From assembly GCF_003334255.1 (NCBI RefSeq), contig NZ_QOWU01000252.1: DNA of 380 nucleotides. One strand, written 5' to 3'. The notes under the pieces are model-generated. The model did no database searches and had not been told where the DNA came from. It saw only the letters and a list, made by a program, of their open reading frames with translations. The translations under genes and the position numbers were made by a program. Numbering within the stretch: the first letter of the stretch is position 1; every line of letters starts with the position of its first letter. This document shows positions 8 through 380 of this stretch, piece by piece. Source of the stretch: Escherichia coli. Its GTDB lineage: Bacteria > Pseudomonadota > Gammaproteobacteria > Enterobacterales > Enterobacteriaceae.

Positions 8-13
8 AACTGA
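1..13 (+). CDS. M: 3' terminus of upstream CDS, probably phage minor tail protein M (partial; 5' end outside window)
   Basis: In frame 2 (codons 2-4, 5-7, 8-10) the sequence gtg gtg aac reads V-V-N, followed by TGA at 11-13. As I recall it, lambda gpM ends ...EQVVN, and in lambda M lies immediately upstream of L. Only three codons are visible, so the call rests mainly on synteny with the confidently identified L gene downstream. Confidence 0.5.
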
Positions 14-380
14 TGCAGGATATTCACGAAGAAAGTCTGAACGAGTCGGTTAAGTCAGAGCAGTCACCGCGGGTGGTACTCTGGGAAATCGACCTGACGG
101 TGCAGGGCGGTGAGCGGTATTTTTTCTGCAATGAGCTGAATGAAAAAGGGGAGCCGGTGACCTGGCAGGGGCGTGAATATCAGGCGTACCCGATTGAGGG
201 GAGTGGCTTTGAGATGAACGGGAAGGGCAGCAGTGCCAGACCATCGCTGACGGTGTCCAATCTGTTTGGTCTGGTCACCGGGATGGCGGAAGACCTGCAG
301 AGTCTGGTGGGGGCCACGGTGGTCCGCCGCCGGGTGTATGCCCGTTTTCTGGATGCGGTGAATTTCGTTGCGGGCAATCC
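13..380 (+). CDS. L: Phage minor tail protein L, lambda gpL family (tail tip assembly); 5' end complete, 3' end beyond window
   Basis: ATG at 13-15, then an uninterrupted frame-1 reading frame to the window edge. Translation: MQDIHEESLNESVKSEQSPRVVLWEIDLTVQGGERYFFCNELNEKGEPVTWQGREYQAYPIEGSGFEMNGKGSSARPSLTVSNLFGLVTGMAEDLQSLVGATVVRRRVYARFLDAVNFVAGN. This aligns without gaps to the N-terminus of lambda gpL as I recall it (MQDIRQETLNE...VVLWEIDLT..GGERYFFCNE.NEKGEPVTWQGR.YQ.YPI.GSGFE.NGKG...RP.LTVSNL.G.VTGMAEDMQSLVG.TVVRR.VYARFLDAVNFV.GN). The many conservative substitutions indicate a lambdoid homolog, not lambda itself. No in-frame stop occurs in the window. Confidence 0.9.
   Translation, partial: MQDIHEESLNESVKSEQSPRVVLWEIDLTVQGGERYFFCNELNEKGEPVTWQGREYQAYPIEGSGFEMNGKGSSARPSLTVSNLFGLVTGMAEDLQSLVGATVVRRRVYARFLDAVNFVAGN

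Follow-up and report, generated by a model that had tools for sequence, protein, structure and literature searches.

Minus-strand open reading frames as shadows of the tail-tip gene L at the M/L junction of a lambdoid prophage in Escherichia coli

In a 380-base stretch of Escherichia coli DNA, referred to below as the window and beginning GGTGGTGAACTGATGCAGGAT, the only open reading frames (ORFs) of at least 60 aa that had been listed lay on the minus strand, and an initial annotation made from the letters alone claimed that the true gene had been missed. This observation is confirmed as real and it is purely mechanical in origin. We hold it almost certain that the window represents the junction of the tail-tip genes M and L together with the 5' half of L from a lambdoid prophage, and that the minus-strand ORFs are non-coding shadows of the latter gene. 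The gene itself is an ordinary, already-known tail-tip gene L of the lambda type, and the case provides no new biology.

With a minimum length of 60 aa, only two ORFs were listed in the window, at positions 50-244 and 180-377 and both on the minus strand, while a minimum of 20 aa yielded four ORFs, with the addition of a minus-strand ORF at 24-131 and a short plus-strand ORF, of 31 aa, at 266-361. The lister employed reports exclusively those ORFs which end at a stop codon inside the source sequence and it omits any that cross the edge. Plus-strand frame 1, with an ATG at positions 13-15, lacks stop codons throughout its 126 codons and gene L is missing from the track because the lister needs a stop inside the 380-base source, where L has none; the explanation given initially for the skipped gene was therefore correct, and both listed minus-strand ORFs lie, as was also stated, wholly inside L (13-380). 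More generally, this constitutes a quality-control point in that a stop-requiring lister, when applied to short windows, systematically misses the edge-running gene and displays antisense shadows in its place.

The assignment of the two plus-strand genes rests on concordant annotation and homology. Positions 1-13 carry the 3' end of the tail-tip gene M, encoding the distal tail protein, as annotated in RefSeq and in phage records, and translation of plus-strand frame 2 at the start of the window reads VVN*, with the TGA stop at positions 11-13. Family, PDB and annotation matches place the first 122 codons and two additional nucleotides of L, which encodes a minor tail or tail-tip hub protein of 232 aa when whole, at positions 13-380 of the plus strand. 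A genomic copy showing 100% identity to the window occurs in E. coli IAI39 (RefSeq; locus L001 below), where a CDS annotated as 'phage tail protein' (M) ends at L001 4013, equivalent to window position 13, and 'phage minor tail protein L', of 232 aa, extends over L001 4013-4711; on this annotation, M contributes its final 13 bases to the window and L its initial 368. The upstream gene is named 'tail tip assembly protein M' in phage records, and the identical or near-identical DNA present in RefSeq and GenBank is annotated as M and L only.

The prediction that the product of plus-strand frame 1 would match gpL was borne out in each of the collections searched. The 122-residue product matched the TIGR01600 phage_tail_L equivalog with 182.4 bits (6.9e-54), well beyond the curated cutoff of 70.75, and the PHROG 'minor tail protein' families phrog_4199 and phrog_18 with E-values of 1e-77 to 1e-79 (7.3e-79 for phrog_4199). 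It also aligned without gaps, residues 1-122 on 1-122, with the lambda 'Tail tip protein L' of PDB 8iyk chain L (2.2e-63), and the lambda gpL cryo-EM entries that were matched are 8iyk, 8iyl, 8k35, 8xcg and 9e7m. Full-length L scored 303.9 bits (5.3e-91) against Pfam PF05100 Phage_tail_L, and the exact 232-aa sequence falls into a cluster, formed at 90% identity and comprising 8,943 members, that bears the name 'phage minor tail protein L'.

Many E. coli chromosomes, including those of IAI39 and ATCC 25922, match the window DNA with 100% identity along its entire 380 bases, and a match is present in 2,989 of 5,426 complete genomes, at a median of two places and up to 13. Matches were also found in 189 phage records and, where these are annotated, M and L are present. 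DNA identity amounts to 91-96% for Stx-converting and other lambdoid phages and to about 76-79% for lambda, phage 21 and their relatives. The gene order at the identical locus is tape measure H, M, L, K (a C40 peptidase), I and J, and this H-M-L-K-I-J order is shared by the identical and the 96%-identical DNA and likewise by lambda, phage 21 and others. Two annotation details of the neighbourhood were observed in passing. A gap of about 340 bp between I and J in IAI39 (L001 6043-6387) is unannotated in RefSeq, and a related phage record places a 'tail fiber protein' of 77 aa in the corresponding I-J gap (L002 4557-4900). Moreover, gene K of phage vB_EcoS-569R3 (L002 3222-4079) is given as 858 nt, of which about 40 nt overlap the beginning of I, compared with 744 nt in other records, which is an annotation or start-site discrepancy.

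The start codon of L can be considered secure because the ATG at position 13 is the first start codon past the upstream in-frame stop, because homology begins exactly there in all 14 homologues, and because a Shine-Dalgarno-like GGTGGTG at positions 1-9 of the plus strand forms an anti-SD duplex of -10.2 kcal/mol (the best value over positions -17 to -4). The homologues include some with differing upstream contexts: before L, mEp460 and Tritos carry a spacer of 9 nt with AGGAGG in place of TGATG, and in Fels-1 a Lom-like gene, not M, lies upstream of L. The phage 21 record annotates a ribosome-binding site at the site equivalent to GGTGGTG. The stop codon of M (TGA, 11-13) and the start codon of L (ATG, 13-15) share one base within the motif TGATG at positions 11-15 (L001 4011-4015), and this junction is kept in 11 of the 14 homologues. 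The overlap suggests that translation of L may be coupled to that of M and, given the TGATG motif and the preceding GGTGGTG, L would probably be translated in this coupled manner from the late operon transcript.

The N-terminal HDI beta-sandwich of gpL forms the last tail ring together with gpJ (PMC10721106) and, judging from the domain boundaries given in the same study, residues 1-122 encoded in the window are likely to constitute most of that domain. The C-terminal domain binds a [4Fe-4S] cluster through four conserved cysteines (Tam et al. 2013, as cited in PMC10721106); Cys173, 182, 205 and 212, the predicted cluster ligands according to the positions in PMC10721106, are all present in the full-length L of the 100%-identical genomic copy and all lie outside the window.

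Two further features within L were recorded. The PDB search also gave sub-threshold matches of L residues 49-72 (window 157-228, plus strand) to engineered ETV6 (TEL-SAM) fusions, with a whole-sequence E-value of about 1e-5; no stretch passes alone and the matches probably reflect a shared linker or a composition effect. A terminator scan of the region yielded three terminator-like hairpins on the plus strand, compared with 0.9 expected from shuffles. One of these, CGGGTGTATGCCCG followed by TTTTCTGGAT, lies at window positions 331-344, or 331-354 with its tail (plus strand; L001 4331-4354), where the conserved RRVYARFLDA segment of L is encoded. None of the three hairpins was taken to be functional, all being weak 5-8 bp consensus matches within coding sequence, and the window hairpin, with its 5-bp stem, is probably a by-product of the coding sequence.

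The minus-strand ORFs differ in how their frames relate to that of L. The ORF at 50-244 encodes 64 aa from an ATG and its codon position 2 corresponds to the wobble position of L. The ORF at 180-377, of 65 aa as listed and starting with TTG, has wobble positions that coincide with those of L, and the short ORF at 24-131 (35 aa, TTG start) occupies the same frame. Although the listed span of 180-377 is accurate, the ORF is incomplete there; the apparent start is created by the window edge, and the genomic parent has 115 aa, a GTG start and the coordinates L001 4180-4527 on the minus strand. In addition, the 3' part of a 245-aa antisense ORF (L001 4064-4801) occupies window positions 64-380 of the minus strand, in the codon-for-codon complement frame of L. 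It is longer than L itself (232 aa) but was missed by the first reading, being absent from the window track because, as with L, it crosses the window edge.

The minus-strand products had been described as rich in Pro, Arg, Ser and Ala and, when Thr is included, these residues do make up 58-59% of the two listed products, compared with 28% of the L product. For the L frame, the GC contents at codon positions 1, 2 and 3 are 0.64, 0.40 and 0.67, respectively, and the antisense frames show permutations of these values. The comparison across frames that had been proposed as a check gave the anticipated answer, since GC by codon position and the substitution patterns considered below both single out the L frame. 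The accompanying description of the gene as GC-rich applies in moderation, the window having a GC content of 57.6% and the L frame a GC3 of 67%. Shadow ORFs antisense to genes with G/C-rich third positions are a well-known gene-finding artefact. Here, the minus-strand ORFs stay open by chance as a result of the G/C-rich third positions and of the few TTA, CTA and TCA codons in L, such that the scarcity of stops on the complementary strand is attributed to the codon usage of the sense gene.

Searches with the minus-strand products were as empty as had been predicted. The two listed products showed no family match in PHROGs, NCBIfam, Pfam or PDB, the product of ORF 24-131 showed none in PHROGs or NCBIfam, and the 115-aa ORF had nothing in PDB. 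Two candidate assignments were examined and dismissed as noise, namely ORF 180-377 as a sorbitol-6-phosphate dehydrogenase (NCBIfam E = 0.3; 10.5 bits against a cutoff of 304) and the 64-aa ORF as archaeal ribosomal protein L4 (PDB E = 0.35-0.68). The exact minus-strand products are absent from a collection of 15 billion predicted proteins, and an Rfam scan of both window strands, with E up to 1, gave no match. Signals for antisense expression, which the initial annotation had named as potential evidence to the contrary, were also lacking in the region searched: there were no sigma-70-like promoter sites on either strand of L001 3600-4800, and anti-SD pairing before the antisense starts was weak, ranging from +1.9 to -6.7 kcal/mol compared with the -10.2 kcal/mol found for L.

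The integrity of the minus-strand ORFs was assessed in 13 homologues that align to the window without gaps. The ATG of ORF 50-244 is absent from all 13, of which 11 also contain an internal stop. ORF 180-377 contains one to three internal stops in all nine homologues that show 73-79% identity, its TTG start is altered to TTT or TTC in nine of the 13, and it is intact in the four closest homologues. ORF 24-131 is also broken by stops in nine of the 13. This loss of start and stop integrity among the homologues supports the three ORFs being shadows.

The substitutions themselves follow the L frame. Variable columns at L codon positions 1, 2 and 3 number 40, 31 and 97, respectively, of 122 each, and by our own arithmetic the chi-square against a uniform distribution is about 46. 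Values of dN/dS are 0.04-0.18 for the sense frame of L, 2.0-22.6 for the frame of ORF 50-244 and 1.4-5.2 for the codon-complement frame (64-380). The frame of ORF 180-377 also exhibits low values, of 0.06-0.32, with an amino-acid identity of 0.63-0.98, which is expected, since the two frames have their third positions in common and this one thereby mirrors the constraint on L. The overall substitution pattern is thus explained by selection on the L frame only.

Chance expectation was estimated from 10,000 trials in which the 122 residues were given new synonymous codons, drawn according to usage in the adjacent tail genes, under an edge rule like that of the lister. At least one minus-strand ORF of at least 60 aa arose in 45% of the trials and at least two arose in 5%. 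Furthermore, genes H, K, I and J at the same locus all carry antisense ORFs, ranging from 66 to 291 aa (223 aa in K and 291 aa in J). Since recodings and neighbouring genes yield similar ORFs, those of the window can be viewed as expected background that carries no signal, although the presence of two antisense ORFs of at least 60 aa in 380 bases is somewhat uncommon under the recoding null and, to that extent, counts against the shadow reading.

The openness of the codon-complement frame has a comparable basis. Only a TTA, CTA or TCA codon in L can close this frame, and L has two of them (codons 15 and 18), or 0.86 per 100 codons, with 0.8-1.5 per 100 codons in the neighbouring genes; the frame remains open because such codons are rare. 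L codon 18 (TCA), read on the complementary strand, gives the stop codon of the 245-aa ORF at window positions 64-66. Among the 14 L genes examined, the complement frame is open over 215-233 codons in 10 and has no more than one stop in eight. Six lambda-group L genes leave it open throughout, against an expectation of about three stops, corresponding to a P of about 0.03 per gene, but these six are close relatives and non-independent. The 245-aa product has no Pfam match and is absent from the 15-billion protein collection, and a candidate match to phrog_6642 (PHROG E = 0.14) was rejected. This ORF too is regarded as a shadow, and a genuine antisense role for it in the late tail operon, through translation or at least transcription, is extremely unlikely.

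The 115-aa parent of ORF 180-377 did produce matches when compared with 5.8 billion predicted proteins, eight in all with a best E-value of 5e-60. Three of these were inspected at their loci (P0016, P0017 and P0019) and two were judged by sequence only (P0022 and P0023). The best match, P0016, is an 'Uncharacterised protein [Escherichia coli]' with 24 member sequences; at L015 178-669 it has been called antisense to an intact Phage_tail_L gene that encloses it completely, and tblastn of gpL gives 98% identity there. At the loci of P0017 (L017 1501-2037) and P0019 (L016 1501-2004) the gpL homologue shows an apparent identity of only 51-56% and is split between frames, and the two 'proteins' themselves switch between antisense frames; in these assemblies, which are full of indels, no L could be called. 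P0022 and P0023 are, from their sequences alone, chimeras with J-like and transposase sequence. Significant homologues of a minus-strand ORF had been named initially as a finding that would speak against its being a shadow. Taken literally, such homologues exist, but the three inspected are antisense calls on a gpL gene or calls in frameshift-ridden assemblies, and such matches are annotation errors derived from the same locus, not independent evidence of a gene. Shadow ORFs thus occasionally leak into public protein databases as an 'Uncharacterised protein' and, because they are mis-annotated in this manner, a raw E-value match to an antisense ORF does not in itself constitute gene evidence.

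These results bear on two alternative interpretations in which an antisense frame would be functional. A real small protein antisense to L could be proposed as the product of ORF 50-244, or of ORF 180-377 and its 115-aa parent, from the ATG start of the former and, for the latter, from its apparently conserved amino-acid sequence and low dN/dS, its persistence in the four closest homologues and the eight database matches. However, the low dN/dS is the expected shadow of L, given the wobble positions common to both frames, and the ORF is interrupted in every homologue at 73-79% identity; ORF 50-244 has lost its ATG throughout and evolves with dN/dS above 2. Together with the lack of family, Pfam or PDB matches to the listed products, their absence from the 15 billion proteins, the missing promoter-like sites and weak SD pairing, and the antisense or frameshifted character of the three inspected matches, this leaves the proposal with a very small probability. 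The 245-aa ORF could similarly be a genuine overlapping gene, or the mark of a functional antisense transcript, and the 215-233 open codons in 10 of the 14 L genes, with zero stops in six at a P of about 0.03 per gene given tail-gene codon usage, are in its favour. Against this, the frame shows dN/dS above 1 and an identity to the lambda group of about 0.5, compared with 0.8 for L, and it is cut in Stx-phage relatives and Fels-1 by stops at L codons 141, 39 and 69. Moreover, the density of stop-generating codons in L resembles that of its neighbours, where antisense ORFs are equally long, no Pfam or PHROG match was found, the product does not occur in the protein collection, and its GTG start is preceded by no SD pairing (+1.9 kcal/mol) and no promoter-like site. 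We therefore judge this second interpretation to be highly improbable as well.

A third alternative concerns the status of the prophage rather than the identity of the gene, namely that the window's L survives as a remnant within a cryptic, defective prophage, unused for making tails, with its frame still that of a bona fide L. The identical copy in IAI39 lies downstream of a tape-measure gene which lacks its N-terminus and which abuts a frameshifted IS3-like IS629 transposase pseudogene (L001 1-3679), and the multiple copies in the matching genomes, with a median of two and up to 13, are typical of a mixture of intact and decayed lambdoid prophages. On the other hand, the reading frame of L is unbroken over its 232 aa and includes all four Fe-S cysteines, the same L sequence is found in many strains, and copies with 96% identity occur in records deposited as Escherichia phages. 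We consider a cryptic origin to be a possibility but a rather unlikely one, and both the identification of L and the conclusion that the minus-strand ORFs are its shadows stand even if the prophage is cryptic.

The L of the window closely resembles lambda gpL. Both have 232 aa, are encoded within the H-M-L-K-I-J gene order, overlap with M at TGATG and, for the allele of the window, retain the four Fe-S cysteines; the gap-free alignment shows an amino-acid identity of 79.5% for residues 1-122 and 76.7% for the whole protein. It differs from lambda in that its allele is one characteristic of Stx-converting and other E. coli lambdoid prophages, and in this stretch its DNA is about 76% identical to that of lambda; the scattered substitutions include EV to VQ at residues 30-31 and N to A at residue 120, and the sequence comparison indicates no functional difference from lambda gpL. 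F-type pyocins are lambda-like tail derivatives. The baseplate hub protein of an F2-pyocin (PDB 25vf chain 7) matches residues 19-122 of the window product with E = 1.3e-19, and it is a much more distant relative and a component of a bacteriocin, not a phage virion protein. The minus-strand ORFs, for their part, resemble known shadow ORFs in lying inside a coding sequence of the opposite strand, in being rich in Pro, Arg, Ser, Ala and Thr and in not being conserved as ORFs, and the sole addition made by the present examples to this known kind is the handful of public records in which one of them is annotated as an 'Uncharacterised protein'.
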